Shown here piece by piece: positions 30,785 through 63,635 of a DNA stretch of 64,000 nucleotides. Made by a program: the position numbers and the translations under genes. The notes beneath the pieces were generated by a model that saw only the letters and a program-made list of their open reading frames with translations, was not told the DNA's origin and did no database searches. How positions within the stretch are numbered: position 1 is the stretch's first letter; every line of letters begins with the position of its first letter. The DNA comes from Candidatus Yanofskybacteria bacterium RIFCSPLOWO2_01_FULL_42_49 (lineage in GTDB: Bacteria; Patescibacteriota; Minisyncoccia; 2-02-FULL-40-12; GWA2-44-9), in assembly GCA_001795615.1 (NCBI GenBank), contig MGKI01000014.1, positions 5,380-69,379 on the forward strand. The letters run 5' to 3'.

Positions 30785-31798
30785 ATGGCGAAAACAAAAA
30801 ACAAGACCGCTTTAATTTTCGGTATCACCGGTCAAGACGGTTCGTATTTAGCTGAAATCCTTTTGAAAAAGGGATATGTTGTGCATGGCGTCGTGAGACG
30901 GGCTTCAACTTTTAACACAGCAAGAATAAATCATCTCTATCAGGATCCACACAATAAAAGCAGGAAACTTTTTCTGCACCACGGAGACCTTGCCGACGCT
31001 GGCACAATAAGAAAAATAATTAATAAAGTTAAACCGGAAGAGGTCTACAACCTTGCCGCACAATCGCATGTTAAAGTCTCGTTTGAAATTCCTGAATACA
31101 CAATGGACATTACCGGTAACGGGGCGTTGAGAATTCTTGAAGCACTAAGGGATTTCCAAACAGAAACAGGGGGAAAAGTTAAATTCTACCAAGCATCATC
31201 TTCGGAAATGTTTGGCGCAGCTCCCCCGCCCCAAAATGAAAAGACGCCATTCATACCCCAAAGCCCCTACGGCGCAGCCAAGGTTTTCGCTCACAATATG
31301 ACGAACCTCTACCGCGATGCTTATGGACTTTTTGCTGTAAGTGGAATACTTTTCAATCACGAATCACCACGACGAGGGGAAACATTCGTAACACGAAAAA
31401 TCACCCGTGGCATTGCCAGAATAAAAGCCGGTTTGGACAAAAAATTATACCTCGGCAACCTGGACGCTAAGAGAGATTGGGGACATTCCCCTGAATTCTG
31501 CGAAGCCATGTGGCTAATGATGCAACAGCCCAAGCCAAATGACTTCGTTATCGGCACAGGCGAGACGCACACTGTGAGAGAATTCGTTGAACTGGCTTTT
31601 AAAGAAGCCGGTTTGGGTAGTTGGAAAAAATATGTTGAAATTGATCCTCAATACTACAGGCCAGCTGAAGTAAATATTTTAGTCGCCGATACCAGAAAGG
31701 CAAAAAAAGTATTGAAGTGGCAACCAAAAACCAAATTCAAAGACCTTGTGAAAATAATGGTCTGGAATGACATTAACGAATTTAAAGTTAAAAATTAA
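30785..31798 (+). CDS. gmd: GDP-mannose 4,6-dehydratase
   Basis: [33 protein letters not shown] (YxxxK), and the characteristic [12 protein letters not shown] loop. Confidence 0.9.
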
Positions 31799-31886
31799 AA
31801 GAGTAAAGTTAAAAGTCAAGGTTTTAATTTAAAGATTTTAAAAACTTATAATTTAAAACTCTAATTTTACACTTTCTATTTTAAAT

Positions 31887-32819
31887 TTGAAAAATTTTTC
31901 AAACAAAAAATTTTTAGTTACTGGCGGAGCCGGGTTTTTGGGCTCTTTTGTAATACAGAAGTTATTGGACAAAGGCGTATCGCAAAGAAACATATTCGTT
32001 CTCCGCTCAAAAGATTTAGATCTGCGTAAATGGGAAAATTGTGTTAAGGCAGTCAAAAATCAAGATATTATTATCCATCTTGCCGCCGTGGTCGGCGGAA
32101 TTGGATATAACCAAAAAATTCCCGGTCAGATGTTTTATGACAACTTATTGATGGGGACGCAACTTATGGAAGCGGCTCGCCAGACAGGCGTAGAAAAGTT
32201 CGTTGCAATAGGCACAATCTGCGCATATCCAAAATTCGCTCCTATCCCCTTTGCGGAAACATCGTTGTGGCATGGCTACCCGGAAGAAACAAACGCTCCG
32301 TATGGCCTTGCTAAAAAAATGCTCCTGGTCCAAGCCCAAGCCTACCGACAGCAATATGGTTTCAATGCCATTTATCTTTTACCGGTAAATCTTTACGGCC
32401 CCGGAGATAATTTTAATCCTCAAAGTTCACATGTTATTCCTGCCTTGATTAAAAAAGTTGCCGACGCGAAAAAAACTGGACAAAAACACATAGATGTTTG
32501 GGGCACAGGAAAAGCGTCCAGAGAATTTTTATATGTTGAAGATTGCGCTGAAGGAATTGTTTTGGCAACCGAAAAATATGACAAACCGGAGCCGGTCAAC
32601 CTTGGAGCAAATAGAGAAATCAAGATAAGGGATCTGGTAAAAACTATCTGCAAATTAACGAGCTTTAAAGGAAAAGTCCGCTGGGACAAAACAAAACCAG
32701 ACGGCCAGCCAAGAAGAATGGTTGACGCCACTCTCGCCCGTAAAGAGTTCGGGTTTAAAGCAAAGACTGATTTTGAAAAAGGACTCAAAAAAACTATCAA
32801 TTGGTATGTAAAAAGTTAA
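31887..32819 (+). CDS. fcl: GDP-L-fucose synthase (GDP-4-keto-6-deoxymannose 3,5-epimerase/4-reductase)
   Basis: [41 protein letters not shown]; immediately downstream of gmd. Confidence 0.9.
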
Positions 32820-32857
32820 AAATAGAAAGTAAAAAGTTTAAAATTAAAATAATTTTA

Positions 32858-32883
32858 AAAGGGACTTAATGTCCCTTTTGTGT
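32858..32883. terminator. bidirectional intrinsic terminator
   Basis: gggac-ttaat-gtccc hairpin with flanking A- and T-runs, between fcl (+) and the convergent 32884 gene (-). Confidence 0.5.
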
Positions 32884-33335: not shown

Positions 33336-33929
33336 TTAGAAATTCTTCTCTATTTGGCCGCAAAGCATGTGAATAACGGCCAGATGAACTTCCTGGACCA
33401 AGGCTGTATTTTCGTTCGGCACAATAATTGCAACATCAACCATCTCAAGAAGGTGTTTTGTTTTGGCGCTAAAAAATCCTATATTCTTCGCCCCTTTTAC
33501 CATAGCCGCTTCAAAAGCGTTTCTGATATTCCATGAATGGTGATCGTTTTCAAGATCACCAACATCGCTAGTAGTAAACCCGATGGCAACATCTCCCTGA
33601 CAGGCTAATGCTTCAATTTGTCTTGCAAAAACAGAAGGGAATCCAAAATCATTGCTTTGAGCGGTTAAAATCGAAGAATCCGTAGTTAAAGCAATAGCCG
33701 GTATTGCTTTCCTTCTTTTTTCAAACATACACACCAACTCTGCGGCGAAATGCTGAGCTTCGGCCGCCGAACCGCCATTCCCAAAGATAAGAATTTTACC
33801 ACCCCTCTTTATTGCTTCTGACAAAATTTCTCCGGCTATCCAAAAATTTCTAGCTAAATTCCAATCATTTGACATCTTAACATACAGTTCTGATCTTGCT
33901 TGCATGTTTTCAGCAAACAAATGTCCCAT
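33336..33929 (-). CDS. gmhA: phosphoheptose isomerase (sedoheptulose-7-phosphate isomerase, SIS domain)
   Basis: KILIFGNGGSAAEAQHFAAEL...TDSS...GFTTSD pattern typical of GmhA. Confidence 0.85.
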   Translation of the reverse strand: MGHLFAENMQARSELYVKMSNDWNLARNFWIAGEILSEAIKRGGKILIFGNGGSAAEAQHFAAELVCMFEKRRKAIPAIALTTDSSILTAQSNDFGFPSVFARQIEALACQGDVAIGFTTSDVGDLENDHHSWNIRNAFEAAMVKGAKNIGFFSAKTKHLLEMVDVAIIVPNENTALVQEVHLAVIHMLCGQIEKNF

Positions 33930-33996
33930 GATTTTCCTTTGTCAATTTGTCAATCTGCTAAATCTCATATACCATATAAATACTAAAAAGCAATCC

Positions 33997-34521
33997 ATGG
34001 AGAAATATTTAATTCTTGACAGAGATGGGGTTCTGATCAAAGACAAAGGATATGTCCACAAGATAAAAGATCTAGAATTATTGCCGGGCGTTGTTGAGGG
34101 TCTACAGAAGTTCAGAGATGCTGGATATAAATTTATTGTGATTTCAAACCAAGCCGGCATCGCAAGAGGACTTTACACGAGAAGGGACGCTGAAAGATTT
34201 AACAACAAACTAAAGGCGATATTGGCTTCCGACGGTATTGTCTTGGAAAAATTTTATTATTGTGAACACCACCCGGACATTAACGGCCGATGTAATTGCA
34301 GAAAACCGGCCACAGGATTAGTCACTAAAGCGGTTGAAGAATTCGAGATTAACTTAAGCGACGCCTGTTTTATCGGTGACAAGGACTGCGATATTGAGTT
34401 GGGTAAAAACTGCGGAGGCATTACTGTTCTGATAGACAGCGGCCAATATCCGAATTCGGTTCAACCTGATTTTAAAGCAAAGAACCTTGAACACGCGTTT
34501 GAGCTATTAAAAAACCGCTAA
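33997..34521 (+). CDS. gmhB: D,D-heptose 1,7-bisphosphate phosphatase (HAD-IIIA)
   Basis: LILDRDGVL, ISNQAGIARG, zinc site YCEHHP...CNCRKP, FIGDKDCD; start at the internal ATG 33997. Confidence 0.8.
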   Translation: MEKYLILDRDGVLIKDKGYVHKIKDLELLPGVVEGLQKFRDAGYKFIVISNQAGIARGLYTRRDAERFNNKLKAILASDGIVLEKFYYCEHHPDINGRCNCRKPATGLVTKAVEEFEINLSDACFIGDKDCDIELGKNCGGITVLIDSGQYPNSVQPDFKAKNLEHAFELLKNR

Positions 34522-34529: not shown

Positions 34530-35489
34530 TTAGATTTGTTTAATGTCATGAATATACCGTTGATAAGTTCTTCTGATGCCTTCCAAAATATCAACTTTCG
34601 ATTGCCATCCCATAGCTCTCAAACGACTTGAGTCAAGGAGTTTCCTCGGCATTCCGTTTGGTTTGGAATCGTCCCAAACAATTTTACCTTTATAACCAAC
34701 AACTGAACCAACAACATCTGCTAATTCAGCAATACTGTAATCAATACCGGTACCAACATTAATTAAAATGTCGCCCCGCTCAATCTCTTCTTCTAAAGGA
34801 CTGAAATTATCCATTAAGAAGACGCTCGCGTCAGCAACATCATCAACGTAAATAAACTCCCTTCTTGGAGAACCGTCGCCCCAAAGAACAACCTCCGGCA
34901 TATCGCTTACCATCGCGTTGTGAAACTTTTTTATCATATCAGGCAGAACATGGGCTCGGTCATGTTCAAAATGATCATTTTCCCCATACATACTTGCTGG
35001 AATTGCTACTATAAAGTTGGTGCCGTACTGGACATTAAACGCTCGACACATTTCAATACCGGCTAGCTTGGCCATCGCATATGCTCGGTTGGTCGGCTCC
35101 AACGGACCGGTCATCAAATATTCCTCTCTCATCGGCTGGGGACATTCTCGGGGATAGCAACAGTTAGCACCGAAAAACAAAAGTTTTTTGACGCCAGCCA
35201 CATGAGCAGCCAACACGACATTTTGCTGAATCAAAATATTTTTAATTATAAAGTCTGCGGGATACTTAATGTTTTCAGCGATATTACCGACCTTAGCAGC
35301 ACAAAGGAAGACATATTCCGGTAATTCTTGAGCAAAAAATTTCGACACACTAAGTTTATCGGTTAAATCAAGGTGCATATTATCACCAGTGACTAAATTT
35401 CTAAATCCATTATTTTTAAGCGTCCGGACTATAGCCGAACCAAGCAAGCCGGTGTGACCAGCAATGTAAATTTTGGAGTTTTTATCCAT
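34530..35489 (-). CDS. NAD-dependent epimerase/reductase, GDP-L-fucose synthase family paralog
   Basis: IYIAGHTGLLGSAI, CAAKVGNI, AYAMAKL; Fcl-like fold next to the heptose genes, suggesting a 6-deoxyheptose or deoxyhexose reductase. Confidence 0.7.
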   Translation of the reverse strand: MDKNSKIYIAGHTGLLGSAIVRTLKNNGFRNLVTGDNMHLDLTDKLSVSKFFAQELPEYVFLCAAKVGNIAENIKYPADFIIKNILIQQNVVLAAHVAGVKKLLFFGANCCYPRECPQPMREEYLMTGPLEPTNRAYAMAKLAGIEMCRAFNVQYGTNFIVAIPASMYGENDHFEHDRAHVLPDMIKKFHNAMVSDMPEVVLWGDGSPRREFIYVDDVADASVFLMDNFSPLEEEIERGDILINVGTGIDYSIAELADVVGSVVGYKGKIVWDDSKPNGMPRKLLDSSRLRAMGWQSKVDILEGIRRTYQRYIHDIKQI

Positions 35490-35981: not shown

Positions 35982-37772
35982 ATGAAAACATTACATAAAA
36001 TATTGGCCATTATTAGCCTGTTCCGCAGAGCCTTTTCAAGGCATACAAAAAAATTAGCCTTAATGATTGGCCTTGGGTTTATTGGGGGCTTTTTGGGTGG
36101 TATCGGGATCGGAGCGATTATTCCCCTGTTTTATATTATCACCAACAAATCCAGTGTCGGAACTGATTCTATCTCTAGAATTATTTCTAAAATATTTGAA
36201 TTTATTCACCTGCCGATATCGCTATCGTCAATTATACTGTTAATGGTTGTTTTATTTCTAACTAAAGCTGTTTTTTTATACATAGCAAATTATATAAATA
36301 CAAAGATATATGCCGATTACGAACTTGAGACGAGAGAAAGGTTATTTAAAAAAACTCTGGAAACTGATTGGCCATACCTGATGCACCAGAAAACAGGCCG
36401 CCTTAACGATATTTTAATGGGCGATGTTGGAGGAGCATCCGGCGCTTTAAATAGTATGAGCGGAGCTGTTTTAACTGGAACAAGTCTGATAACTTACGCC
36501 ATAATTGCGGTTAATATATCGGTTCCCATAACACTGGCAACTCTTGGTTTGGGAGCATTTTTATTTTTCTTATTTAAGCCAGTCTTCTACCGGGTCAGAA
36601 AATTATCCGGCCAAACCTCGGAAACGATCAAAACACTTGCCCACCATCTCAACCAGCATGTCGCTGGCGCTAAAACCATAAAATCCATGTCCTTGGAAAA
36701 TGATGTTTTCCAAAAAGGTATGGCCTATTTTGATGACTTAAAAAATATACGATTGAAATGGTCCCGATACGGCATTCTTCTTAATACTTTCGTCGAACCG
36801 GTAAGCCTGGGACTAGTAGTCGCTATATTTCTAACTTCATATCGAAATCCAGATTTTAACATCGCCACTTTTGTCGCAATAATCTATCTGGTTCAAAAAA
36901 TGTTCACATTCGTTCAGTCTATCCAGGGAAAATTTAATGTAGTAAACGAATCCCTTCCTTTGATAAACATCTTGGTGGCTTACGAAAAAGAGATCGATAA
37001 AAATCGAGAATTCGTCGGAGGCAATAAACAATTTATTTTTAACAGAACGCTGGAATTTAAAAATGTCTCATTTGGCTATGTTGGGGGACAAAACATTGTC
37101 AACGCATTGAATTTGTCCATAAATAAAGGAGAAATGGTCGGACTTATCGGACCTTCCGGCGCCGGAAAAACAACAATAGTAGACTTGCTGTTAAGATTAT
37201 TCAGGCCCAATAGCGGAGAACTGCTTATTGATGGCGCCAACATAGATGAACTGGACAAAAAATCGTGGCATAAGAATATCGGATATGTATCGCAGGATAT
37301 ATTTTTGCTTAATGACACCATTGAAAACAATATTCGTTTTTATAATAATGCCCTAAACCATAAAGACATCGTGGAAGCAACGAGATCAGCCAACATCTAC
37401 GATTTTATAGAAACATTGCCTGATAAATTCCAAACACTTGTAGGAGAACGAGGTATTCAGCTTTCAGGCGGACAGCGCCAACGAATCGTTCTCGCCCGAA
37501 TTTTGGCAAGAAAGCCGTCCATATTGGTTCTTGACGAGGCAACCAGCGCTCTGGATAACGAATCAGAGCACAAAATCCAAGAAGCAATTAAAGGGCTGCG
37601 AGGCAAACTAACAATATTGATTGTGGCTCACCGTTTAAGCACGGTCATGCATGCGGACAAAATTGCGGTCCTCAAAGACGGCATCATCGCAGAAGAGGGC
37701 GGTCCACAGGAACTTCTCAATAACAGTCAGTCGTATTTCTACAAAAATTATAATATAGATAAGAGTTATTAA
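35982..37772 (+). CDS. ABC transporter, fused permease/ATPase (MsbA-like type I exporter)
   Basis: Six-TM N-domain; Walker A GPSGAGKTT, signature LSGGQRQRIVLARIL, Walker B ILVLDEATSALD. Confidence 0.85.
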   Translation: MKTLHKILAIISLFRRAFSRHTKKLALMIGLGFIGGFLGGIGIGAIIPLFYIITNKSSVGTDSISRIISKIFEFIHLPISLSSIILLMVVLFLTKAVFLYIANYINTKIYADYELETRERLFKKTLETDWPYLMHQKTGRLNDILMGDVGGASGALNSMSGAVLTGTSLITYAIIAVNISVPITLATLGLGAFLFFLFKPVFYRVRKLSGQTSETIKTLAHHLNQHVAGAKTIKSMSLENDVFQKGMAYFDDLKNIRLKWSRYGILLNTFVEPVSLGLVVAIFLTSYRNPDFNIATFVAIIYLVQKMFTFVQSIQGKFNVVNESLPLINILVAYEKEIDKNREFVGGNKQFIFNRTLEFKNVSFGYVGGQNIVNALNLSINKGEMVGLIGPSGAGKTTIVDLLLRLFRPNSGELLIDGANIDELDKKSWHKNIGYVSQDIFLLNDTIENNIRFYNNALNHKDIVEATRSANIYDFIETLPDKFQTLVGERGIQLSGGQRQRIVLARILARKPSILVLDEATSALDNESEHKIQEAIKGLRGKLTILIVAHRLSTVMHADKIAVLKDGIIAEEGGPQELLNNSQSYFYKNYNIDKSY

Positions 37773-39754
37773 TGATTCAATACTTGTATTTAATCTTGGG
37801 GCTAGCCGCAGCTTCCAGTATAATTTTTTCTTTTATGACAAAGGGGGTTCTTTACGCTACGCCCGATACTGACAATGAATTAATGGCCTATGCCGCCGCT
37901 CAATCTCATAGATGGCGTTGGCTGTCAGATCTCCATAAAATGGGTTTAGGCAAAACTGGGATGAAAGACCTGACCGTTATATTAATATCAGTATTTCAAA
38001 AAATATTCCGCAATAAGACCGATGATCACCCCTATATTGCATTGGCCGGCACAGCTCACGCTTTTTCGTCTTTGTTAGTATATTTTATTGCTTCAGAATA
38101 TTGGGATCCAGCCATCGCTTTGTTTTTGGGATTGCTCTATTTGTTTTCTGTATGGAATTGGCAGATAGCTCTTTATGGAGGCCACGCCAATGTGGCCACC
38201 ATGTTGGTTCTGCTTTCTGTTTGGTTCACCCAACAAACAAATAATGGTTTAATGTGGCCGGGAATATGGTTAGTAGCAGCCGGGATAATATTTTGTTTTG
38301 CTCAATTTGCTTCAGCATCAACTATTAAATACACCCCCCTATTTTTCGGAGCCATTATTTTTGAACGCTATCAGATTTTTATCAAAGGAGGAGATTGGCT
38401 GAATACCTATCCTTTCATCATAAACAGCCAATTATACAAATTAAATATTTTTGTAATAATTATTTTTTTATTAAGCATTCTTTTCCTGCGACTTTTTTAT
38501 AAAAAAATAGTTTCAGCTATATATTACGGTAAGGCATTCGGATTTTTAAATAAAATAATCAGCGGAAAAGAATTATTCCCGATAGAACACTACTTCCAAC
38601 ATGCCAAAAAAAGAATAAATCAATTAGCCGTTTGGGGATTGTGGGCTGTCGTCGGCTTTCTGTTATTGGTGAATCTCGTGGGGCTTTATTACTTTTTACT
38701 GGTAATGACAGGCTTTATTGTTGGGTTTCTAATACTAACCCTACCCAACATAAAAAAAAGTTTTCGTTATTACTTTAACTTCATTCTTGAAACACAGATA
38801 AGAAGAAAAACTCACTTTAAAAGTTATATCCACTACTTCGCTGAAAAAGGACTAAATACTTCTAGGCGTACCCGGGGTGCCGGCCTGGCCTGGCTACCAA
38901 AAATGTTCATGAGAATGATACCGTTTCACACTGCAATTTTTATTATTTCCGTTATTGGTTCGCTGTATGCTGTTCCTTTCTTGGGCGGAAAAATTTGGAT
39001 AAATTATACAACGACACTGTTAATAATAATACTATCTCTGTCGCCAATAATCTGGGCCGAAATGACTAAAGCTCAACAACTTTCCAGATCTTATTCTCCG
39101 GGATTGACTGGGATGATGTTGTTGATCGGCTACGGAGCTTACCTTCTTGAAATTTTTTCCTTCAGTTATTTTTATCCGCTAATTATCATCACCTTAAGCA
39201 TTACGATACCGTGGAATTTATGGGTATTTTTATCAGATGTTTATCCGGCACGAATGGGAGCAACTTATATGTTTAGATCGCTGAGACGTTTGAATATAAA
39301 AGAAATTTATACTTATAACACTAAATACAACAGAGCGATGGTCGAAACAATTCCCGGACTAGGCAGATCAGAATATGTTCCTCACAAAAAAATTGATCCT
39401 CCATTTGTAATCCATTATATAAATAGTATAAATGATGTAAAAGATGGCTGGATCGTAATTCCCGGAACTAACGGAAGATCAATTACTATGAGCGGCGAGC
39501 AAGAGGCCATCGATGATAATTTCAGTTTTACAAAAGACCCGGTGTTAAATAAATTAATAGAATCCAGGAAAATTGATAAAATAGCCGATATAAAATTAAA
39601 GACATACGGCACAAGCCATTTCTGGTCTTTAGAAGATGAGGTTCTTGGTTATATGGATCTTATTTTAAATGAAATAGGCCCCAAGGATATTTACAGAGGA
39701 CATGCCTGGCTGATACATTCAAACAAATTAAAATCATTAACTAATGTATTCTAA
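37772..39754 (+). CDS. large polytopic membrane protein of unknown function (possible glycan polymerase / GT-C-like) with soluble C-terminal domain
   Basis: 660 aa, >12 TM; translationally coupled to the ABC exporter. No diagnostic motif recognised. Confidence 0.4.
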   Translation: MIQYLYLILGLAAASSIIFSFMTKGVLYATPDTDNELMAYAAAQSHRWRWLSDLHKMGLGKTGMKDLTVILISVFQKIFRNKTDDHPYIALAGTAHAFSSLLVYFIASEYWDPAIALFLGLLYLFSVWNWQIALYGGHANVATMLVLLSVWFTQQTNNGLMWPGIWLVAAGIIFCFAQFASASTIKYTPLFFGAIIFERYQIFIKGGDWLNTYPFIINSQLYKLNIFVIIIFLLSILFLRLFYKKIVSAIYYGKAFGFLNKIISGKELFPIEHYFQHAKKRINQLAVWGLWAVVGFLLLVNLVGLYYFLLVMTGFIVGFLILTLPNIKKSFRYYFNFILETQIRRKTHFKSYIHYFAEKGLNTSRRTRGAGLAWLPKMFMRMIPFHTAIFIISVIGSLYAVPFLGGKIWINYTTTLLIIILSLSPIIWAEMTKAQQLSRSYSPGLTGMMLLIGYGAYLLEIFSFSYFYPLIIITLSITIPWNLWVFLSDVYPARMGATYMFRSLRRLNIKEIYTYNTKYNRAMVETIPGLGRSEYVPHKKIDPPFVIHYINSINDVKDGWIVIPGTNGRSITMSGEQEAIDDNFSFTKDPVLNKLIESRKIDKIADIKLKTYGTSHFWSLEDEVLGYMDLILNEIGPKDIYRGHAWLIHSNKLKSLTNVF

Positions 39755-40745
39755 GATGATTATTACACGAACACCATTCAGAATATCGTTTTTTGGAGGA
39801 GGAACCGATTATCCGGTTTGGTACAAAAAAAATGGCGGAGCAGTTTTATCAACCACCATTAACCATTATGGTTACATCACCTGCCGTTTTTCGCCGCCAT
39901 TTTTTAAACACAAATACAGGGTATCCTATTCGAAAATAGAGGAAGTGAGCCACCACAATCAAATTGACCATCCTTCCGTAAGAGAATCGCTAAAATTTTT
40001 AAACTTCAACAAAAATTTGAGCATAACTTATGATACCGACCTACCGGCCAGATCCGGCCTGGGTTCCAGTTCATCCTTCACGGTTGGGTTACTCAACGCT
40101 CTTTACGGATTAAGGGGCGAATCCAAAACTAAAGAACAGCTGGCCATGGACGCAATTCATGTAGAACAAAATTTGATCGGCGAAAATGTGGGTTCACAAG
40201 ACCAAACAGCTGCCGCATTCGGCGGACTCAATAAGATAGAGTTCGGCGGCGCTAACGAGTTAACAGTCATCCCGATTATCTTGGAACAAAAAAGGTCAAA
40301 AAATTTACAGGACCATTTGCTTATGTTCTTTACGGGATATGCTCGCACGGCATCGGAAATTGCCGCCGAGCAGATAAGACTCACACCCAAAAAAGACACC
40401 GAGCTTCACGCTATGAGGCAAATGGTAGATGAGGCTGTAAATATCCTCCATAGAAAAAAGGAGAATCTCGATGATTTTGGTAAGCTTCTTCACCAAAGCT
40501 GGCAATTAAAAAGAAGCTTGAGTTCTAAAATTTCAAATCCAGCCATAGACGAAATATATGCATTAGGGATAAAAGCCGGGGCTATCGGAGGAAAGTTGTT
40601 GGGTGCCGGTGGAGGCGGATTTATGTTATTTTTTGCCCCGCCAGAAAGACATAAAAAAATAATAGAAAAACTAAATAACTTTTTATGTGTCCCGGTCAAT
40701 ATGGAGTACACAGGAAGCCAAAGAATATACCACTCGGACTTCTAA
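39744..40745 (+). CDS. GHMP kinase, D-glycero-alpha-D-manno-heptose 7-phosphate kinase (HddA)-like
   Basis: N-terminal RTPFRISFFGGGTDYP and GHMP motif PARSGLGSSSSF. Confidence 0.7.
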   Translation: MYSKMIITRTPFRISFFGGGTDYPVWYKKNGGAVLSTTINHYGYITCRFSPPFFKHKYRVSYSKIEEVSHHNQIDHPSVRESLKFLNFNKNLSITYDTDLPARSGLGSSSSFTVGLLNALYGLRGESKTKEQLAMDAIHVEQNLIGENVGSQDQTAAAFGGLNKIEFGGANELTVIPIILEQKRSKNLQDHLLMFFTGYARTASEIAAEQIRLTPKKDTELHAMRQMVDEAVNILHRKKENLDDFGKLLHQSWQLKRSLSSKISNPAIDEIYALGIKAGAIGGKLLGAGGGGFMLFFAPPERHKKIIEKLNNFLCVPVNMEYTGSQRIYHSDF

Positions 40746-44271: not shown

Positions 44272-44832
44272 ATGAAAGATACCAAACAGCAACAAAAAGC
44301 CGTCGTTATCACTGCCGAAGGATTTGAAGATGAAGAAGTTATTTACCCGGTCATCCGACTTAAGGAAGAGGGGTTCATGGTTGATATCGCCACTAAAGAC
44401 GCTAAGTCCGTATTGGGACGATTAAACTTCCCCCTTGAACTTATAGTCCGTTATTATGCTACTCTGGTTGATGCTAAGAAATTAAAACCTAATGATTATG
44501 ACCTCGTGCTGATTCCCGGTGGATTTGAAGCGCCTGATAGGATGAGACAGGTACCAGAAATTTTGGAATTTGTCAGGCAAATGCATAAACAAAAAAAAAT
44601 CGTTTCTGCGTTTTGCCACGGCCCTTGGGTACTTATCTCAGCCGGCATAGTTAAAGGCAAGAAGATTGCCGGATACATCGGTATTAAAGACGATATAAAC
44701 AATGCCGGGGCAATTTATACCGACCAACCAGCAGTAATTGACGGAAACATTATCACCGCCAGACACCCAAGAGATATGGGAGATTTAATGAAAGCGATTT
44801 TTAGTAAGTTTAAAGTAGAAAATAGAAAATAG
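44272..44832 (+). CDS. DJ-1/PfpI family protein
   Basis: Nucleophile-elbow AFCHGPW and overall class-I glutamine amidotransferase-like fold. Confidence 0.75.
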   Translation: MKDTKQQQKAVVITAEGFEDEEVIYPVIRLKEEGFMVDIATKDAKSVLGRLNFPLELIVRYYATLVDAKKLKPNDYDLVLIPGGFEAPDRMRQVPEILEFVRQMHKQKKIVSAFCHGPWVLISAGIVKGKKIAGYIGIKDDINNAGAIYTDQPAVIDGNIITARHPRDMGDLMKAIFSKFKVENRK

Positions 44833-49036: not shown

Positions 49037-49106
49037 AGCCCCTATAATATACAGAAAATCATCTGACTTGACAAATACATAATTTAATAATACACATAAC
49101 AATAAA

Positions 49107-53417: not shown

Positions 53418-54392
53418 ATGATTAAGAAAAAAGTGCTCATAACAGGCATCACAGGTTCATGCGGTAGCTATCTTGCTGACTATATTGTCAAATACCATCC
53501 CGAGTTTGAAATCCATGGTATCTCTCGCTGGCACAGTACTAGCACGCCTAGAAACTTATCTCAATCATTCAAGAACGTTAAAATGCATGAATGCGATCTG
53601 AACGATTTCAGTTCTACTCTTCGCGTGTTGAAAACGGCGCAACCTGATTTTATTTTTCATGTTGCCTCTCATGCCAATGTGCGTGCATCTTTCATTAATC
53701 CTATTGCTGTATTACAAAATAATATTATGTGTACGGCTAATTTATTCGAAGCACTGCGGCTAGCCGAGATTGATCCGCGAATACAGCTATGCAGTACATC
53801 GGAAGTTTACGGACAGGTTGACCCCAAAAATGTCCCTATCCGTGAAGATTGCCCGATGAATCCGGTAAGTCCTTATGCCGTATCAAAAACAACCCAGGAC
53901 CTTTTAGGTAATGCGTACTTCAAGGCTTATGGGATGAAGATCGTTAGAACGAGAATGTTCACATATATGAATCCTCGAAGAGAAGACCTTTTCATGACAT
54001 CGTTTTCTATGCAAGTAGCTCGCATTGAGGCCGGGATTCAAAAAGAACTTCTTCACGGCAATTTGGACTCCGTAAGAACCGTCATTGATATCCGGGACGC
54101 GATGGAAGCCTATTGGATGTCCCTACAGAAATGCCGGCCAGGAGAAGCATATAACATCGGTGGTACAACCAGTATTACGGTAGGAGATTTTCTAGAAACT
54201 CTTAAGCAACATGCAACCTGTCCTATTCCTTCCCGTTTGGATCCTGAATTATTACGACCGACAGATGTAACCTTGCAAATACCGGACACAACTAAATTCA
54301 CTTCTGAAACTGGCTGGAAACCACAACATAGCCTTGAAGACAGTACAGATTTTCTGTTGAGATACTGTCGTGAAAGAGTAAATCCGTTATGA
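53418..54392 (+). CDS. GDP-mannose 4,6-dehydratase / GDP-6-deoxy-D-mannose reductase (Rmd)-family extended SDR
   Basis: VLITGITGSCGSYLADY (cf [17 protein letters not shown]), STSEVYG, SPYAVSK. Confidence 0.7.
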   Translation: MIKKKVLITGITGSCGSYLADYIVKYHPEFEIHGISRWHSTSTPRNLSQSFKNVKMHECDLNDFSSTLRVLKTAQPDFIFHVASHANVRASFINPIAVLQNNIMCTANLFEALRLAEIDPRIQLCSTSEVYGQVDPKNVPIREDCPMNPVSPYAVSKTTQDLLGNAYFKAYGMKIVRTRMFTYMNPRREDLFMTSFSMQVARIEAGIQKELLHGNLDSVRTVIDIRDAMEAYWMSLQKCRPGEAYNIGGTTSITVGDFLETLKQHATCPIPSRLDPELLRPTDVTLQIPDTTKFTSETGWKPQHSLEDSTDFLLRYCRERVNPL

Positions 54393-54943
54393 TGAAACCT
54401 TGGCCAAGAATAGGCAGAATAGAGACTATCACCAACGAACGAGGCAGAAGCCTAAGAAGGGAAACATTTCAAAGTCCGATAAAAAAAGAGGAATTTATTA
54501 TCTTTAATAGCGACCAAGGAACCTCTGCGGTCGTAATGCCGATAACTGAAGACGATCATGTTTTAGTCATCAAACAATTCCGCGCCGGAGCAAACCATGT
54601 GCTTTTGGAGCTCCCCGGCGGAGGTAAAAACAAAGAAGACGCAACCTTTCTAGAAACTGCCAAGCGTGAGTTATTGGAAGAAACCGGTTACTTGTCAGAG
54701 GAAGTCGTTCCTTTGTCAGAGAATGAGATTTGGCAAGAACCTGTTATCTGTACAACCAGTTTTTATCCGTTTTTGGCGTTAAATTGCCGATATGTATCGC
54801 AACCGCAGCCGGATTCAAATTGTCTCGAAATGGTGAAGATTAAACTGGAAGAATGGCTGAGTATTATAGGCTGGGGGCTAGTTCAAGATAGTAAAAGTCT
54901 AGCCACGACTCTGATAGCTTTAAAACACATTAAACGCCTTTAG
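54389..54943 (+). CDS. Nudix hydrolase (sugar-nucleotide/ADP-ribose pyrophosphatase-like)
   Basis: Canonical Nudix box GGGKNKEDATFLETAKRELLEETGY. Confidence 0.75.
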   Translation: MMKPWPRIGRIETITNERGRSLRRETFQSPIKKEEFIIFNSDQGTSAVVMPITEDDHVLVIKQFRAGANHVLLELPGGGKNKEDATFLETAKRELLEETGYLSEEVVPLSENEIWQEPVICTTSFYPFLALNCRYVSQPQPDSNCLEMVKIKLEEWLSIIGWGLVQDSKSLATTLIALKHIKRL

Positions 54944-55025: not shown

Positions 55026-55835
55026 ATGAATCTCGAACTGAAAGGAAGGTTGGCTTTAGTTACCGGTTCAACCCGCGGACTAGGCAAAGCCATTGCTGAA
55101 GCATTAGCGGCAGAAGGCGCCGACATTATCATAAATGGACGATGGAGTAAAACCGTCGGCAACGTTGCATACGAAATTGAACATAAATTCGGTCATAACA
55201 TTCACGTTTATCAATGCGCATGTGACGCAACTGACCCCAAAAAAATAAAAGAATTTTTTAGCGGAAAAATGCTCCAGATAGGCCACTTGGATATTCTGGT
55301 GAACAATATCGGCAACTTAGAAAAATTCGGAAATTTTTTCGAACTTGAAGATGAGAACTGGTTAAGATGCTACGACCTAACCTGCATGAGCGCGGTCCGC
55401 TTCACCAGAGAAGCCATACCATATCTTGAAAGATCCGGACGCGGAAGAATAATCAATATCTCGAGTTTGTCGTCGCATCAGCCGGGTAACTTTTCTCCCC
55501 ATTACTCTGCGGCAAAAGCGGCTATGAATAACTTGACTAAGCATTTAGCCAATGTTTTGGGAGGTAAAAATATTCTGGTAAATGCGGTCTGTCCCAGCAC
55601 TCTCTCGAGCGGAGGATGGGCTCAAAACATCATAGACAGATCGAGAAGAGACGGAATTACAACTGAACAGGCCGAACAACTGATGCGCAATGAAGACAAT
55701 AAAAAATCTCCCCTTGGCCGAATAGGCATGGCGGAAGATGTCGCAAATTTAGTGGTATACCTGGCCTCTGATAAAGCAAATTTCCTAACCGGACATATTT
55801 TTGATATTGACGGCGGAATTACAAGAGGGGTATGA
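55026..55835 (+). CDS. classical short-chain dehydrogenase/reductase (SDR)
   Basis: LALVTGSTRGLGKAIA (TGxxxGxG), NNIG, YSAAK (YxxxK). Confidence 0.8.
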   Translation: MNLELKGRLALVTGSTRGLGKAIAEALAAEGADIIINGRWSKTVGNVAYEIEHKFGHNIHVYQCACDATDPKKIKEFFSGKMLQIGHLDILVNNIGNLEKFGNFFELEDENWLRCYDLTCMSAVRFTREAIPYLERSGRGRIINISSLSSHQPGNFSPHYSAAKAAMNNLTKHLANVLGGKNILVNAVCPSTLSSGGWAQNIIDRSRRDGITTEQAEQLMRNEDNKKSPLGRIGMAEDVANLVVYLASDKANFLTGHIFDIDGGITRGV

Positions 55836-55836
55836 G

Positions 55837-56778
55837 ATGAGTAAAACCAAGGTTCTCATCTGTGGCGCAAACGGATTTATCGGACGCAATTTATTTGAAC
55901 ACTTTAATTCTGACGACGGATACGAAACCTACGGGACTTACTTTAAGAATAAGCCGAATGTTTTTAGTCCCAGGATATTCCAAGCTGACCTACGGGATAA
56001 AGATGAGGCATTACGGGCAACTCAAGGCATGGACATTGTAATTAATGCCGCGGCTTTGACTGACGGAATGGGGGCTTTTGATCCAACGACATATATTCCT
56101 CAAAACAGAGTGATAAACAATAACTTAATTGAAGCCGCTCACATAAATAGAGTAAAACACTTTATCTTTCTTAGCTGTACGGTGATGTATCCCTCAAGCG
56201 AAAGACCCCTGAAAGAAGATGAATATGATCTGAACAATGTCCATCCAAAATATAAAGAAGGCGCTCAAATGAAACTAGAGGGAGAGTGTTTGTGTTTGTC
56301 GTATGCTAATCTAGGAATTACAAAATATACTGCCATCCGCCATACAAATATTTACGGCCCTTATGATAAGTTTGACTTAAAACGCGGACATGTTCTGCCG
56401 GCCACCATCACAAAAGTGATGGAAGCAAAAGATAAAATCACAGTTTGGGGTAATGAAAAAGAATCAAGAGATTTTCTTTACATTGATGACCTAGCTAAGT
56501 TTATTGAGAAGGCCATTGAAAATCAGAAAAATAATTTTGAACTATTCAATGTTGGATATGGAAAAACATGTTCCGTAAATAAATTAGTCCAGAAAATAAT
56601 TTTCTGCTCGGGGAAAAAACTGGATGTCGTCCATGACCTCGAAAAACCTACGGTTGAAACACATATGAACATTGACGTAAAGAAAGCAAATAATGTTCTT
56701 GGCTGGAAAGCCGAAATCGGATTATCTGAAGGACTCGTTATTACACTGGATTGGTATCATAACCACTACCCGCGCTAA
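55837..56778 (+). CDS. NAD-dependent epimerase/dehydratase family protein (GDP-sugar epimerase/reductase-like)
   Basis: VLICGANGFIGRNLFEHF; the extended-SDR fold; ATG at 55837 follows AGAGGGG. Confidence 0.7.
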   Translation: MSKTKVLICGANGFIGRNLFEHFNSDDGYETYGTYFKNKPNVFSPRIFQADLRDKDEALRATQGMDIVINAAALTDGMGAFDPTTYIPQNRVINNNLIEAAHINRVKHFIFLSCTVMYPSSERPLKEDEYDLNNVHPKYKEGAQMKLEGECLCLSYANLGITKYTAIRHTNIYGPYDKFDLKRGHVLPATITKVMEAKDKITVWGNEKESRDFLYIDDLAKFIEKAIENQKNNFELFNVGYGKTCSVNKLVQKIIFCSGKKLDVVHDLEKPTVETHMNIDVKKANNVLGWKAEIGLSEGLVITLDWYHNHYPR

Positions 56779-56797
56779 GTGCGGGTTTTATTTTACA
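56768..56797 (+). terminator. intrinsic terminator
   Basis: acccgc-gctaagt-gcgggt followed by TTTTATTTT. Confidence 0.5.
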
Positions 56798-56848
56798 GAA
56801 TATAAAAAGTATGGTAGAAAAAGTCATTGTACTTTAAAAAGGGTGGCC

Positions 56849-57649
56849 ATGATAAATCCTTCATTCCTAATAACGGGAACATCGTCTGGTCTTGGACGCT
56901 ACCTATTGGAAGAACTACGGGGTACCCCATTCAATCGTAAAGACACGGAAAATGAGATAAGTAGTCATTCCAAAGATTATTATGACGCCATCATCCATTG
57001 CGCGGTTGACGCAAGGAATATCATCCCCCCTCATGAATTACTCGCCTATTATGAATCAAATGTAGAACTTACAAGAAAGTTGACTCAAATTCCTCATGGT
57101 CTATTTGTTTATATTTCATCGCCCGCTGTATATCCTAATCCCCTGCGCTTGAATAAAGAGACCGACATCCCCGATATTCCTGAAGTCGTATCGCCCGTTC
57201 ATCACACTTATTATCTTTACGGACTTTTTAAATTTCTTAGTGAGCAAATAGTATCAAAATACGCTAAGGATCATCTTGTTCTCCGTTGTGCTCATATTTT
57301 GGGCAGAACAAGCAGAGAATCGAGTAACGTAGTCAGAGTACTTAAGGATGATCGTAGCCAACTTACATTAAGCGCTGATACTACTTTCAGTTTCGTAAGT
57401 ATGGAACAGCTGAAAAAATTCATTGAATTGGCATTGACAAAAAACATCACCGGCATATTCAACGCGGGTTCTAGCCAATACTTGACTCTTGGAGAGATAG
57501 CCAGAGCGGTCAACAGTAAGCCCAATTTTGGAAAATTTGTCCATAATGTACACAAAATAGATACTACTAAGATCAGGGGGGTTTCAGCAGAGTTTAATAA
57601 AGGATCCCTTGAATTAGCCATGGAAACCGCCAAGGAACTACGAAGTTGA
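56849..57649 (+). CDS. atypical SDR / NAD(P)-dependent sugar-nucleotide reductase-like protein (RmlD-like)
   Basis: FLITGTSSGLGRYLLEEL Rossmann motif and a 266-aa length; start at ATG 56849 after AAAGGG. Confidence 0.5.
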   Translation: MINPSFLITGTSSGLGRYLLEELRGTPFNRKDTENEISSHSKDYYDAIIHCAVDARNIIPPHELLAYYESNVELTRKLTQIPHGLFVYISSPAVYPNPLRLNKETDIPDIPEVVSPVHHTYYLYGLFKFLSEQIVSKYAKDHLVLRCAHILGRTSRESSNVVRVLKDDRSQLTLSADTTFSFVSMEQLKKFIELALTKNITGIFNAGSSQYLTLGEIARAVNSKPNFGKFVHNVHKIDTTKIRGVSAEFNKGSLELAMETAKELRS

Positions 57650-57706: not shown

Positions 57707-58498
57707 ATGTTTGACAGGCCTATTGAACTTACTCCTGAACAAATAAGGCTTTACGACGACAAGGGATATTTGGTCGTAGAAAACATTTTTAGTAGCGAAG
57801 AATGTGAAGATGCAATAGCAATATTTGAGCGACACGCAAGATTAGCGGGAGATATAGAATTTAAGGGCGTAATGAACCTCGACAGACCTGAAGAGTGGAC
57901 CCATGTTTATAAACCTAACGAAAAGCATGTCCATCAATATGTAAGACATGTCCTTCTAAAGCATCCTGCCATTGTGACAATACTAGAGATCCTCCAGAGA
58001 ACGGAGCCGGGCGGAGTGGTTTTAATGCAAAGCATGTTCCTGTATAAAAAGGCTCGATCTCTCTATAATGAACAGGCCTGGAACCCTCATCAAGATGGAA
58101 TATATCATGGCTCGCCCGTAGGCGGGACATTAACGGCAAATATAGTCCTTACCGATCAAGATAAAGAAAATGGCGGTATGTTCATTTATCCCGGCTCTCA
58201 TAAAGAAGGATTTCTTGAACCGGAAAAAAAGAAAAGTTTCCACGAAGGCCGTGGCAACAGGCCGGGGCATGATCTTAGCAATCATCCGATCTTTAAAGAA
58301 AAATATTCCGGTAAAGAAATTGATCTTATAATGAAGGCCGGTTCTGTTCTATTCCTTCATGGTTGCGTTATCCATGGATCATATTCAAATAGATCAGAAA
58401 ATCGGGATCGGCCAATGCTTCTAAGCCCTTACAAGACCCAAGGTCTGTCCTTTATTTCCGGTGAAAAGGGTAAGCGAATGGAAATACCGATAAGATAG
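57707..58498 (+). CDS. phytanoyl-CoA dioxygenase (PhyH) family Fe(II)/2-oxoglutarate oxygenase
   Basis: PhyH-like N-terminus (LTPEQIRLYDDKGYLVVENIFS) and iron-binding HQD...H pattern (WNPHQDG...HGCVIHGS). Confidence 0.75.
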   Translation: MFDRPIELTPEQIRLYDDKGYLVVENIFSSEECEDAIAIFERHARLAGDIEFKGVMNLDRPEEWTHVYKPNEKHVHQYVRHVLLKHPAIVTILEILQRTEPGGVVLMQSMFLYKKARSLYNEQAWNPHQDGIYHGSPVGGTLTANIVLTDQDKENGGMFIYPGSHKEGFLEPEKKKSFHEGRGNRPGHDLSNHPIFKEKYSGKEIDLIMKAGSVLFLHGCVIHGSYSNRSENRDRPMLLSPYKTQGLSFISGEKGKRMEIPIR

Positions 58499-62691: not shown

Positions 62692-62728
62692 AAAGTTTAA
62701 AGCTTAAAATTAAAAGTTAAAAGTTTAC

Positions 62729-62754
62729 GACACCGCCGAAAGCGGTGTTTTTGA
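62729..62754 (+). terminator. intrinsic terminator
   Basis: acaccgc-cgaaa-gcggtgt followed by TTTTT. Confidence 0.55.
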
Positions 62755-62822
62755 CAAAAAACAAAAGATAATTTAATATAGCACCAACATAAAGCAGTTT
62801 TTTAAAAATAAGGAGCGATAAT

Positions 62823-63635
62823 ATGTATCCAGACCTAAGAGGAAGAACGGCTCTGGTAACCGGAAGTTCTGACGGAATAGGAGCCGAAATTGCTTTACGT
62901 TTATCCATAGAGGAAGTCGAGGTTATCGTTCATGGAAAAAATCCAGAAAAAGTAGAAAGAATATGTAGTAAAATTAGGGAAGCAAGCTCAAATAAAAGCC
63001 GAGTACACCAATTCGTTGCCGATGCTACTAAACCGGAACAAATAAGCCGTTTCTTTGAAACAAAAATGCCCCAAATCGGTAAATTGGATATTTTGGTTAA
63101 CAATATCGGCGGCATACCGGGGATAAAAACATTTGAAAAAGTAAGCGATGAAGAGTGGTACGACACCTTTACCCTTAACGTGATGGCCCCCGTAAGGTTT
63201 ACTCGTTTGGCTTTGCCATATCTAAAAAGATCAGCTCAGGCCAGAATTATTAACTTGGGAAGCGCAGCGTCAATGCAGCCCGGAGTAAATAATCCGCATT
63301 ATCTTGCGGCCAAGACGGGACTAGTCAATTTAAACAAGTATCTTTCCAACGATCTCGCTAAATATAATATTTTGGTCAACATGGTTTGCCCCCATACTAT
63401 AAAAGGCGGAGCTTGGTTTAGAGACATAAGAAATATTACTAACAACACGGGCGTTTCTTTGGAACAAGCAGCTCAACAACTTGAAAATTCCGTAAAGATT
63501 AAGGTTCCTCTTAACCGTGTGGGGACGATGGAAGAAGTGGCCAACTTAGTTATCTTCTTGGCTTCAAACTCAGCCTCCTTTATAAACGGCGAGTGTATCT
63601 TTGTCGATGGCGGAACTAAAAGGTCAATTTTTTAG
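62823..63635 (+). CDS. classical short-chain dehydrogenase/reductase (paralog of the 55026 SDR)
   Basis: ALVTGSSDGIGAEIA, NNIGG, YLAAK; similar length and motif spacing to the 55026 SDR. Confidence 0.8.
   Translation: MYPDLRGRTALVTGSSDGIGAEIALRLSIEEVEVIVHGKNPEKVERICSKIREASSNKSRVHQFVADATKPEQISRFFETKMPQIGKLDILVNNIGGIPGIKTFEKVSDEEWYDTFTLNVMAPVRFTRLALPYLKRSAQARIINLGSAASMQPGVNNPHYLAAKTGLVNLNKYLSNDLAKYNILVNMVCPHTIKGGAWFRDIRNITNNTGVSLEQAAQQLENSVKIKVPLNRVGTMEEVANLVIFLASNSASFINGECIFVDGGTKRSIF

Follow-up and report, generated by a model that had tools for sequence, protein, structure and literature searches.

Four cobalamin (B12)-dependent radical S-adenosylmethionine (radical-SAM) enzymes, two thiamine diphosphate (ThDP) enzymes and an oxygenase lie together in one glycan locus of Candidatus Yanofskybacteria, a bacterium of the candidate phyla radiation (CPR) from Rifle aquifer groundwater, and the question they raise is whether they serve a single pathway and what kind of sugar it makes. 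The locus occupies positions 30785-63635 of a 64,000 nt contig stretch (the window), which holds 67 open reading frames (ORFs) of at least 100 aa. A preliminary description had read these genes as one pathway to an undescribed, highly modified GDP-sugar. Pfam and NCBIfam scans of 29 non-overlapping ORFs reproduced essentially every one of its gene calls, among them two Nudix hydrolases, a cupin, a DJ-1/PfpI protein, a HAD protein, an MsbA-like exporter and a 660-aa membrane protein. Small corrections were needed, as two rather than three classical short-chain dehydrogenase/reductases (SDRs) lie in the span and three rather than two further extended SDRs were found. The single pathway did not survive: the locus combines generic precursor genes with two cassettes, here called A and B, that each recur on their own elsewhere. 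Its end at 63635 is an artefact of the window edge; the contig continues with island genes, and the span forms the sugar-synthesis half of a surface-glycan island that begins at ~17.2 kb, extends 9 kb or more beyond the window and covers at least 55 kb. The genes are arranged in several divergent transcription units, and GC content is ~40% across the window with no compositional break.

Cassette A is centred on a 631-aa fusion of the alpha and beta parts of a pyruvate dehydrogenase (PDH) E1 enzyme. As proposed earlier, its N-terminal half matches E1 alpha (residues 12-190) and residues 324-577 match E1 beta, and the ThDP motif GDA...DN is invariant. No lipoyl, E2 or E3 gene was found in the window or in any fetched neighbourhood, and we propose that the enzyme is a stand-alone C-acyl carboligase. 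The family is small, since of 1.84 billion cluster representatives only 374 match the E1 profile at E <= 1e-30, and the full-length homologues (48-93% identical) are all metagenomic. Within GTDB representative genomes it occurs in 24 loci, distributed over CPR bacteria (Yanofskybacteria at 74% and 71%, Saccharibacteria, Sungiibacteriota, Daviesbacteria and Liptonbacteria), DPANN archaea (Woesearchaeota and Nanoarchaeota) and a few metagenome-assembled genomes (MAGs) of Nitrospirae, Magnetococcus, Verrucomicrobiota and Desulfobacterales; the alpha and beta parts are fused in Yanofskybacteria and split in the others. Homologues at 42-74% identity share flanking genes across CPR, DPANN and the few other bacteria, and every fetched locus places E1 within this same sugar-gene context, which upholds the earlier assignment of the ThDP and radical-SAM enzymes to sugar tailoring rather than to primary metabolism.

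The core of cassette A (E1, a bicupin and a PfpI/DJ-1 protein) was found in 25 cellular genomes (CPR, DPANN and other) and on 57 IMG/VR contigs. PfpI/DJ-1 accompanies E1 in 21/25 cellular and 55/57 IMG/VR loci, the bicupin in 21 of the 25 cellular loci, a GHMP kinase in 15 and one or more radical-SAM enzymes in 14 of them. Usual additions are a ColD-like 3-dehydratase, a GMD-like 4,6-dehydratase, SDR reductases, a heptose-type kinase with a phosphatase and an RfaE-II-like transferase, the PhyH oxygenase and radical-SAM enzymes; Fcl-like SDRs, the extended SDR epi315 and classical SDRs also recur around E1. The kinase is of GHMP type in CPR and DPANN and of PfkB type on IMG/VR contigs, and most cassette A loci are without a transketolase. 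The PfpI motif CHGP aligns with the Cys100-His101 region of PH1704 (TIGR01382, 151 bits against a cut-off of 139). An AlphaFold model of the bicupin (pLDDT 88) gave Foldseek matches to generic bicupin decarboxylases, dioxygenases and isomerases, cysteine dioxygenase and phosphomannose isomerase (PMI), with no RmlC- or FdtA-specific signal. Proteins of Omnitrophota and Acidobacteriota (P0045-P0062) are natural bicupin-E1 alpha fusions; in one of them (P0054, Omnitrophota, 542 aa) the bicupin part is 40% and the E1 alpha part ~51% identical to the window proteins. Because of this Rosetta-stone link the bicupin and E1 are predicted to act together. In GenBank, a protein of 'Candidatus Yanofskybacteria bacterium RIFCSPHIGHO2_01_FULL...' matches the bicupin of the window at 100% identity. 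In four DPANN loci (L015, L021, L022, L025; for example L022 13181-15220) the GHMP kinase lies within a 677-709-aa protein, which may be an Fkp-like kinase/nucleotidyltransferase fusion. Beside E1 in a Saccharibacteria MAG (L007 6845-9079) stand an HpcH/HpaI-aldolase-like fragment, a sulfotransferase and a CTP_transf_like-APS-kinase fusion; by analogy with ErwI of erwiniose, the aldolase could supply a longer 2-oxo-acid donor, and sulfation would be a further decoration.

The DegT-family enzyme of cassette A had been described as carrying His in place of the catalytic Lys. Its motif YYGHQFSTIEGG aligns with the ColD motif FYSHHIATMEGG, which puts the His at ColD His188, a column fixed by the PDB mutant entries H188K (2r0t) and H188N (3b8x). 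ColD is also its best PDB match (1e-49), ahead of CDP-hexulose 3-dehydrase (1e-36) and the best aminotransferase (1e-32); the top NCBIfam model is RfbH, at 188 bits against a cut-off of 423. The same His occupies this column in 56 of the 58 DegT homologues of the fetched E1 loci.

Cassette B is centred on the transketolase, for which all three expected Pfam domains were recovered. Its ThDP motif GDGE...N and cofactor Glu (GIAEQ) are invariant. The ~30 members of its clade share at least 43% identity with the window copy, whereas ordinary transketolases, including those of Parcubacteria, drop abruptly to at most 34%; the NCBIfam score is 318 bits against a cut-off of 488. In human transketolase we take R318, S345, H416, D424 and R474 to form the sugar-phosphate acceptor site, with Asp424 presumably acceptor-binding and His416 phosphate-binding. 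Both phosphate-binding Arg (R318, R474) are kept in the clade. Since His416 is replaced by Gly and Asp424 by Met throughout the clade, and S345 is not conserved, the window enzyme appears not to be a canonical sugar-phosphate transketolase. It recurs, in the absence of E1, with an HpnJ-like radical-SAM enzyme, a TokK-like radical-SAM enzyme, a GMD-like enzyme and a kinase on three unrelated contigs (GC 39-63%) and one IMG/VR contig. Five window genes have homologues on these contigs: the GMD-like enzyme (42-49%), the GHMP kinase (42-46%, in 3/4 of the transketolase loci), epi315 (49-53%), the 509-aa radical-SAM enzyme (33-39%) and the TokK-like enzyme (31-34%). Synteny of the transketolase with such genes was seen in L014 and L034-L037. 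The contigs additionally hold an HddC-type NTP_transferase and glycosyltransferases (GTs), and carry no E1, bicupin, PfpI or ColD-like gene. This separate clade, standing beside GMD-like, kinase and radical-SAM genes in other loci, bears out the proposed place of the transketolase in sugar tailoring. On two of the contigs (L034 5808-9020, L035 12599-15022) the TokK-like and rSAM2-like (509-aa) genes are split by inteins (PF14890). The transketolase-cassette contigs also show many 60-100-aa ORFs on one strand, an arrangement reminiscent of large phages or giant viruses. About 2 kb past the window end (L001 15455-16331), downstream of the island, lies a second N-terminal piece of a transketolase (223 aa, its C-terminal half absent) with an 87-aa ORF after it in a different frame; this resembles a paralogue that has decayed or been split.

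The four proteins described as B12-dependent radical-SAM enzymes all have the radical-SAM domain with a single CxxxCxxC motif (at residues 205, 229, 271 and 253), and three of them pass the cut-off of 32.1 bits for the B12-binding domain PF02310 (36.5, 56.4 and 41.3 bits). The fourth, of 709 aa, falls short (28.8 bits), which its alignment with TokK and CysS makes up for. At no more than 27% pairwise identity, the four appear to represent four subfamilies rather than recent duplicates. The 709-aa enzyme scores 243 bits against NF033712 (KedN5 family, cut-off 700) and thus probably works like the TokK/KedN5 family, of which it is not a curated member; identical copies occur on metagenome contigs of up to 141 kb. 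The C-methylation proposed earlier can, in our view, be assigned with confidence to this enzyme only; for the other three, methylation, cyclisation or rearrangement are all conceivable. Homologues of the 466-aa enzyme reach 60% identity in another Yanofskybacteria locus (L010) and 54-55% in L030 and L032, and the 509-aa enzyme is paired with the transketolase in the window, in L014 and in L034-L037. The radical-SAM complement differs from locus to locus. The predicted PhyH oxygenase was confirmed by its Pfam match. A phosphonate pathway, hinted at by weak PhpK-like and methylphosphonate-hydroxylase-like matches, was rejected, as the window contains neither PEP mutase nor phosphonopyruvate decarboxylase.

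The co-location of these genes is not due to chance, as the same sets recur around distantly related homologues (25 cellular loci and 57 IMG/VR loci). The IMG/VR loci (L038-L094) are mostly of 29-36% GC and carry E1 (55), DJ-1 (55), the bicupin (54), the ColD-like gene (50) and epi315 (42), usually in the order DJ-1, bicupin, a ~130-aa HAD-like ORF, E1 alpha, E1 beta, ColD-like, Fcl-like, epi325-like and GMD-like (for example L039 8408-17150 and L065 8401-15786). They often add an RmlC-like epimerase, a PfkB kinase, an RfaE-II-like transferase, GT2 and GT4. Their viral label rests on IMG/VR itself and on a few strong PHROG matches in the flanks: a RecE-like exonuclease in L079 (phrog_7655, 8e-166), an SbcC-like protein in L084 (1e-56), phrog_11199 in L069 (7e-95) and a portal protein in L094, whose E1 match is weak. 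These phage-family genes suggest that at least some carriers are real phages; the remainder may be pieces of giant viruses or cellular islands that were mis-binned. A tblastn search of GenBank phages (INPHARED) found no E1 homologue, and a preprint on CPR phages describes auxiliary genes for O-antigen nucleotide sugars of a generic kind, with no mention of the cassette (10.1101/2025.02.25.640227).

The precursor genes are generic. Among them only gmd beats a curated NCBIfam equivalog cut-off (TIGR01472, 503 bits against 415). For the GmhA-, GmhB-, HddA- and RfaE-II-like proteins the expected family ranks best with scores below cut-off; the GHMP kinase, for example, reaches 165 bits against 600 for NF049969 (HddA), and its best PDB matches are all heptose kinases. 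Two SDRs score below the cut-off for GDP-fucose synthase (NF047922) and are therefore best regarded as Fcl-like epimerase/reductases, not proven Fcl; homologues of the one at 34530-35489 (43-46%) lie within the E1 cassette of Nitrospirae, Verrucomicrobiota and Parcubacteria loci. In the GMD-like enzyme CSTSEVYG and SPYAVSK align with SSSE and YGAAK of gmd and the dehydratase Glu is kept; its 148 bits against TIGR01472 indicate that it is not gmd itself, and its homologues (42-69%) occur in both cassettes. The RfaE-II-like enzyme is the only nucleotidyltransferase of the window. Since none of GDP type was found there, the GDP-sugar of the preliminary description is unproven. The listed RfaE-II-like ORF overlaps a Nudix ORF on the opposite strand by 77 bp; because its homologues have only 162-180 aa, its true start is probably downstream, the overlap being an ORF-calling artefact.

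Taken together with the neighbouring assembly genes, these enzymes would fit a scheme in which heptose (or mannose) 1-phosphate is nucleotide-activated, the GMD-like enzyme forms a nucleoside diphosphate (NDP)-4-keto-6-deoxy sugar, and the ColD-like enzyme, dependent on pyridoxamine phosphate (PMP), takes off the 3-hydroxyl to give an NDP-3,6-dideoxy-4-keto sugar. The stand-alone E1, with the bicupin and PfpI as obligatory partners, would then decarboxylate a 2-oxo acid (by default pyruvate) and add the acyl anion to the keto carbon; SDRs would reduce the ring and branch ketones, the TokK-like enzyme would methylate an unactivated carbon, possibly more than once, and PhyH would hydroxylate. 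The divergent transketolase and its HpnJ-like partner may carry out a second carbon-carbon or rearrangement step on the same or a second NDP-4-keto-6-deoxy sugar. The product or products would be placed on a polyprenyl-linked glycan; Bac_transf would start this glycan, Wzx and the ABC exporter would flip or export it, GT2 and GT-C enzymes would lengthen it, and it would be carbamoylated. The product, its carrier and the roles of the transketolase and of three radical-SAM enzymes are what we infer, and we would give the scheme as a whole, from NDP-3,6-dideoxy-4-keto-hexose or -heptose to surface glycan, an even chance of being right.

Several observations count against this scheme. All carriers of the cassette are MAGs and none has a known product, the nucleotide carrier is not established, and three of the radical-SAM enzymes score far under every curated family cut-off. 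Just 10 of the 25 cellular loci have the ColD-like gene less than 10 kb from E1. The likeness of the bicupin model to dioxygenases, decarboxylases and isomerases is generic, leaving the roles of the bicupin and PfpI unexplained. PhyH, and perhaps the bicupin, requires O2, next to radical-SAM enzymes that are sensitive to it; to our knowledge CPR bacteria are also generally thought unable to make cobalamin or thiamine, which would have to be scavenged. The steadiest neighbours of E1 (bicupin, PfpI and sugar kinase) would equally fit carbon-carbon bond formation at the sugar-phosphate level. In this rather unlikely alternative, the main rival to the scheme, E1 (as a 1-deoxyxylulose-5-phosphate-synthase-like enzyme) and/or the transketolase would extend an aldose phosphate by a C2 unit, the bicupin would isomerise ketose and aldose (PMI/GmhA-like), the GHMP kinase would phosphorylate C1, the HAD enzyme would remove the distal phosphate and the RfaE-II-like enzyme would activate the product, with the dehydratases acting afterwards on a higher-carbon NDP-sugar, in parallel to heptose and lincomycin octose routes. 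Arguing for it are the 3-dehydratase being outranked as an E1 neighbour by the bicupin, PfpI, a HAD-like protein and the kinase, the weak PMI-type Pfam matches of the cupin and PMI structures among its fold matches, the small HAD/NT5C-like ORF between cupin and E1 alpha in 25 IMG/VR loci, and the two phosphate-binding Arg of the transketolase. Against this, the ColD-like gene directly follows E1 beta in IMG/VR loci (present in 50/57), its His signature is almost invariant, pyruvate as the donor would yield a 1-deoxy-ketose that is not isomerisable to an aldose, and the E1-type precedent in sugar pathways is the branching of NDP-keto-sugars (PMC4802897).

The separate recurrence of the cassettes, A mostly without transketolase and B without E1, together with the variable radical-SAM set and the divergent transcription units, would also be expected of a mosaic of ordinary pathways (GDP-fucose, 6-deoxy-heptose and a colitose-like 3,6-dideoxy sugar) whose ThDP and radical-SAM enzymes act on different sugars or on non-sugar substituents. 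We consider this improbable: ThDP enzyme, dehydratase(s), SDRs and a radical-SAM enzyme stay together per cassette across phyla, domains and phage-like contigs, so that each cassette alone implies a non-standard sugar, and the GHMP kinase, GMD-like enzyme, epi315 and TokK-like enzyme are common to both cassettes and single-copy in the window, which suggests a shared trunk. That TokK, CysS, KedN5, PhpK and the Plm8/9-type E1 are all natural-product enzymes, and that an ABC exporter is present, could point to a secreted small-molecule glycoside or aminoglycoside-like product, but this is very improbable given neighbouring phosphoglycosyl transferase, Wzx, GT2, GT-C and carbamoyltransferase genes, GT2 and GT4 genes in phage-like loci, and the lack of aglycone, polyketide synthase, nonribosomal peptide synthetase or cyclitol genes. 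Compact CPR genomes do mix functions and the Pfam/NCBIfam names of E1 and transketolase are merely generic; a housekeeping role for the two in pyruvate oxidation and the pentose-phosphate pathway is nevertheless scarcely credible. It is contradicted by synteny (E1 confined to sugar-gene context, with E2/E3 missing), by the identity gap that sets the transketolase clade apart and by the active-site changes, namely the loss of the acceptor-binding Asp and one phosphate-binding His.

Branching of an NDP-keto-sugar by E1 has close parallels. In yersiniose-type routes a CDP-glucose 4,6-dehydratase and a PMP-dependent 3-dehydrase (E1/RfbH) are followed by a ThDP enzyme (YerE/ErwE/MyGE) and the reductase YerF; with YerE-type enzymes, this acyl-branching logic is proven for yersiniose and proposed for erwiniose and caryophyllose (PMC9306805). 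A 4,6-dehydratase, a His-type 3-dehydratase, a ThDP carboligase and a ketoreductase are all present in the window locus, and the presumed order (4,6-dehydration, PMP/His 3-deoxygenation, ThDP acyl addition to the 4-keto carbon, ketoreduction) and the decoration of a surface glycan would be alike. Because its carboligase belongs to another ThDP family (PDH-E1 alpha-beta rather than the acetolactate-synthase-like YerE), the window pathway is best viewed as an analogue and not a member of that type. Its 3-dehydratase is moreover closer to GDP-specific ColD than to CDP-specific RfbH, and its bicupin, PfpI, heptose genes, cobalamin radical-SAM enzymes, PhyH and transketolase have no counterpart there. 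The PDH-E1-like pairs Plm8/Plm9 (paulomycose) and AviB1/AviB2 (eurekanate), for which two-carbon branching was shown genetically in Streptomyces (PMC4802897), are by description similar in combining E1 alpha and beta without E2/E3 and attaching a pyruvate-derived C2 unit to an NDP-keto-deoxysugar. They act on dTDP-2,6-dideoxy or trideoxy antibiotic sugars, whereas the E1 of the window belongs, with a ColD-like 3-dehydratase, to a type of glycan locus that occurs in CPR and DPANN and on phage-like contigs.

Among deoxysugar pathways, colitose synthesis (GMD, ColD, ColC) shares gmd, the ColD-like His enzyme and Fcl-like reductases with the window, ColD being the best solved relative, but needs no ThDP, radical-SAM or oxygenase step, and the ColD-like gene of the window travels with E1. 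The GDP-6-deoxy-heptose pathways of Campylobacter, Yersinia and Burkholderia (GmhA, HddA, GmhB, HddC, DmhA/WcbK and reductases) share the GmhA-, HddA- and GmhB-like proteins and a GMD-like 4,6-dehydratase; the window differs in having the RfaE-II-like enzyme instead of an HddC-type guanylyltransferase, in its scores below equivalog cut-offs and in adding 3-deoxygenation and carbon-carbon chemistry. The lincomycin octose route (LmbR, LmbN, LmbP, LmbK, LmbO), the template for chain extension, proceeds from carbon-carbon extension to isomerase, kinase, phosphatase and nucleotidyltransferase, using a transaldolase (LmbR) rather than ThDP enzymes and no radical-SAM enzyme. The 709-aa enzyme aligns with TokK and CysS, which methylate an sp3 carbon iteratively, over the cobalamin and radical-SAM domains, whereas the known members TokK, ThnK, CysS and GenK act on carbapenems, cystobactamid and aminoglycosides; we know of no member described in a nucleotide-sugar or surface-glycan pathway. 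Each single chemistry (ColD, the 6-deoxyheptose enzymes, E1-type branching, TokK-type methylation) thus has precedent. The novelty claimed earlier must be narrowed accordingly, as E1-type deoxysugar branching was known (PMC4802897); it stands in that searches of the open-access literature found no cobalamin radical-SAM enzyme linked to O-antigen, capsule or nucleotide-sugar pathways, no description of the E1-bicupin-PfpI triad, no transketolase paralogue in nucleotide-sugar tailoring and no pathway combining the window's enzyme set.

If the scheme holds, cobalamin-dependent radical-SAM enzymes would for the first time be placed in the biosynthesis of nucleotide sugars or surface glycans, sugar branching of PDH-E1 type would have its first example beyond actinomycete antibiotics, and a transketolase paralogue would have been recruited to nucleotide-sugar tailoring. 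CPR and DPANN genomes are tiny, and both groups are generally regarded as incapable of producing cobalamin or thiamine, yet more than 55 kb is given to a cofactor-hungry surface sugar in this organism. The core cassette lies on phage-like contigs too, which makes surface-glycan variation a plausible battleground for both host attachment and phage recognition. The triad and its natural fusion offer a defined three- to five-gene target for in vitro work. A bolder version, possible but doubtful, is that E1-bicupin-PfpI, the transketolase/HpnJ-like pair and the TokK-like enzyme build higher-carbon sugars (a 3,6-dideoxy-heptose-derived nonose or decose with an iteratively cobalamin-methylated and hydroxylated ThDP branch) and that the pathway is traded between CPR, DPANN and phages. 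Such nonoses or decoses would be a class not yet seen in any glycan, and the traded pathway would vary the surface that episymbionts use for attachment and phages recognise.

The features of the window are collected in Table 1. The assembly genes adjoining the span indicate a lipid-linked surface glycan, in line with the surface role proposed for the product, and the ABC exporter is a candidate lipid-linked-glycan flippase. The 660-aa membrane protein, conceivably a GT-C enzyme, matched no Pfam family even at E = 0.5 and its single-sequence AlphaFold model has pLDDT 45; two paralogues (35% and 39%) occur in the Yanofskybacteria locus L014. That locus and L010 carry cassette A with differing accessory sets, L010 without a transketolase and L014 with a split transketolase kept with rSAM2 beside cassette A. 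Since these sets differ from each other and from that of the window, the island is hypervariable within the Yanofskybacteria lineage, like O-antigen loci.

Table 1 Predicted features of the glycan island, in window coordinates
Feature	Position	Strand	Evidence
Glycan assembly block	17176-30038	mixed	Pfam; hydropathy
LPG_synthase_C-like	17176-18078	-	Pfam
556-aa protein, no assigned family	within 17176-30038		
UDP-Glc/GDP-Man dehydrogenase-like	19938-20939	-	Pfam
Initiating phosphoglycosyl transferase Bac_transf	21003-22379	+	Pfam
GT2	22544-23362	-	Pfam
Wzx-like flippase	23278-24588	-	Pfam
385-aa protein, 10-12 transmembrane helices, Wzy-like topology	within 17176-30038		hydropathy
GDSL esterase	within 17176-30038		Pfam
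Carbamoyltransferase	26947-28689	-	Pfam
GT-C PMT_2	28683-30038	-	Pfam
gmd, GDP-mannose 4,6-dehydratase	30785-31798	+	TIGR01472; PF16363 4e-135
Fcl-like extended SDR (fcl2)	31887-32819	+	NF047922 284 bits, cut-off 500
GmhA-like sedoheptulose-7-P isomerase (SIS)	33336-33929	-	TIGR00441 155 bits, cut-off 209; best family
GmhB-like HAD-IIIA phosphatase	33904-34521	+	NF006506 145 bits, cut-off 178; HAD-IIIA domain above its cut-off
Fcl-like epimerase/reductase	34530-35489	-	NF047922 403 bits, cut-off 500
MsbA/PglK/HepA-like ABC exporter	35982-37772	+	Pfam, NCBIfam
660-aa polytopic membrane protein	37772-39754	+	~11-13 transmembrane helices, then ~170-aa soluble tail
HddA/WcbL-like GHMP sugar kinase	39744-40745	+	PDB heptose kinases 1e-39 to 5e-35
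Fused PDH-E1 alpha-beta ThDP enzyme, 631 aa	40820-42715	+	profile match to E1 alpha and E1 beta
B12-radical-SAM enzyme 1, 466 aa	42770-44170	-	CPYRCSFC at residue 205; weak best families BchE/PhpK/BzaD
PfpI/DJ-1 family protein	44272-44832	+	Cys-His (CHGP) nucleophile kept
Metal-binding bicupin	44863-45591	+	predicted metal site H66, H68, H107
HAD-IA phosphatase	45588-46244	+	Pfam; same position in L008, L009, L010, L019
ColD/RfbH-like PMP-dependent NDP-4-keto-6-deoxyhexose 3-dehydratase	46367-47563	+	His in place of Schiff-base Lys
Extended SDR epi315	47564-48511	+	kept in both cassettes, 49-67% identity
RfaE-domain-II-like (cytidylyltransferase-fold) sugar-1-P nucleotidyltransferase	48539-49183	-	TIGR02199 84 bits, cut-off 181
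Nudix hydrolase (NudE-like)	49107-49715	+	Pfam, NCBIfam
Divergent fused transketolase	49771-51606	-	PF00456, PF02779, PF02780
B12-radical-SAM enzyme 2 (rSAM2), 509 aa	51748-53277	-	best family HpnJ, weak
GMD-like NDP-sugar 4,6-dehydratase	53418-54392	+	T-S-E and YxxxK motifs
Nudix hydrolase	54389-54943	+	Pfam, NCBIfam
Classical SDR (candidate branch ketoreductase)	55026-55835	+	45-51% homologues in cassette A
Fcl-like extended SDR epi325	55801-56778	+	homologues 38-46%
Divergent extended SDR	56693-57649, called gene 56849-57649 (266 aa)	+	Pfam
PhyH-family Fe(II)/2-oxoglutarate oxygenase (predicted)	57707-58498	+	PF05721 84 bits, cut-off 22, 2e-23
B12-radical-SAM enzyme 3, 625 aa	58605-60482	+	nearest families PhpK/Sden_1168 methyltransferases, weakly
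B12-radical-SAM enzyme 4, 709 aa	60562-62691	+	TokK/CysS/KedN5-type; TokK 4e-89, CysS 2e-51
Classical SDR	62823-63635	+	Pfam

Past the window end the same contig carries an AAA_33 kinase, a HAD protein, an aldo-keto reductase, the truncated transketolase-N remnant, a HemN-like radical-SAM protein and a further DegT protein, and housekeeping genes (SecA, pyrF) lie further upstream of the assembly block. Rfam (gathering threshold) and tRNA scans of the window gave no matches, hence no cobalamin or TPP (ThDP) riboswitch was detected. Unrelated to the glycan island, a 318-aa protein on the minus strand (9130-10086) has a cytidylyltransferase-like N-terminus and a weak C-terminal DisA_N (diadenylate cyclase) match. 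Three adjacent minus-strand genes at 4565-7462 may form a small module for DNA repair or defence; they encode an RNase_H_2 and Cas4-like PD-(D/E)XK protein (481 aa), a PD-(D/E)XK nuclease (242 aa) and a JAB/MPN protein (191 aa).

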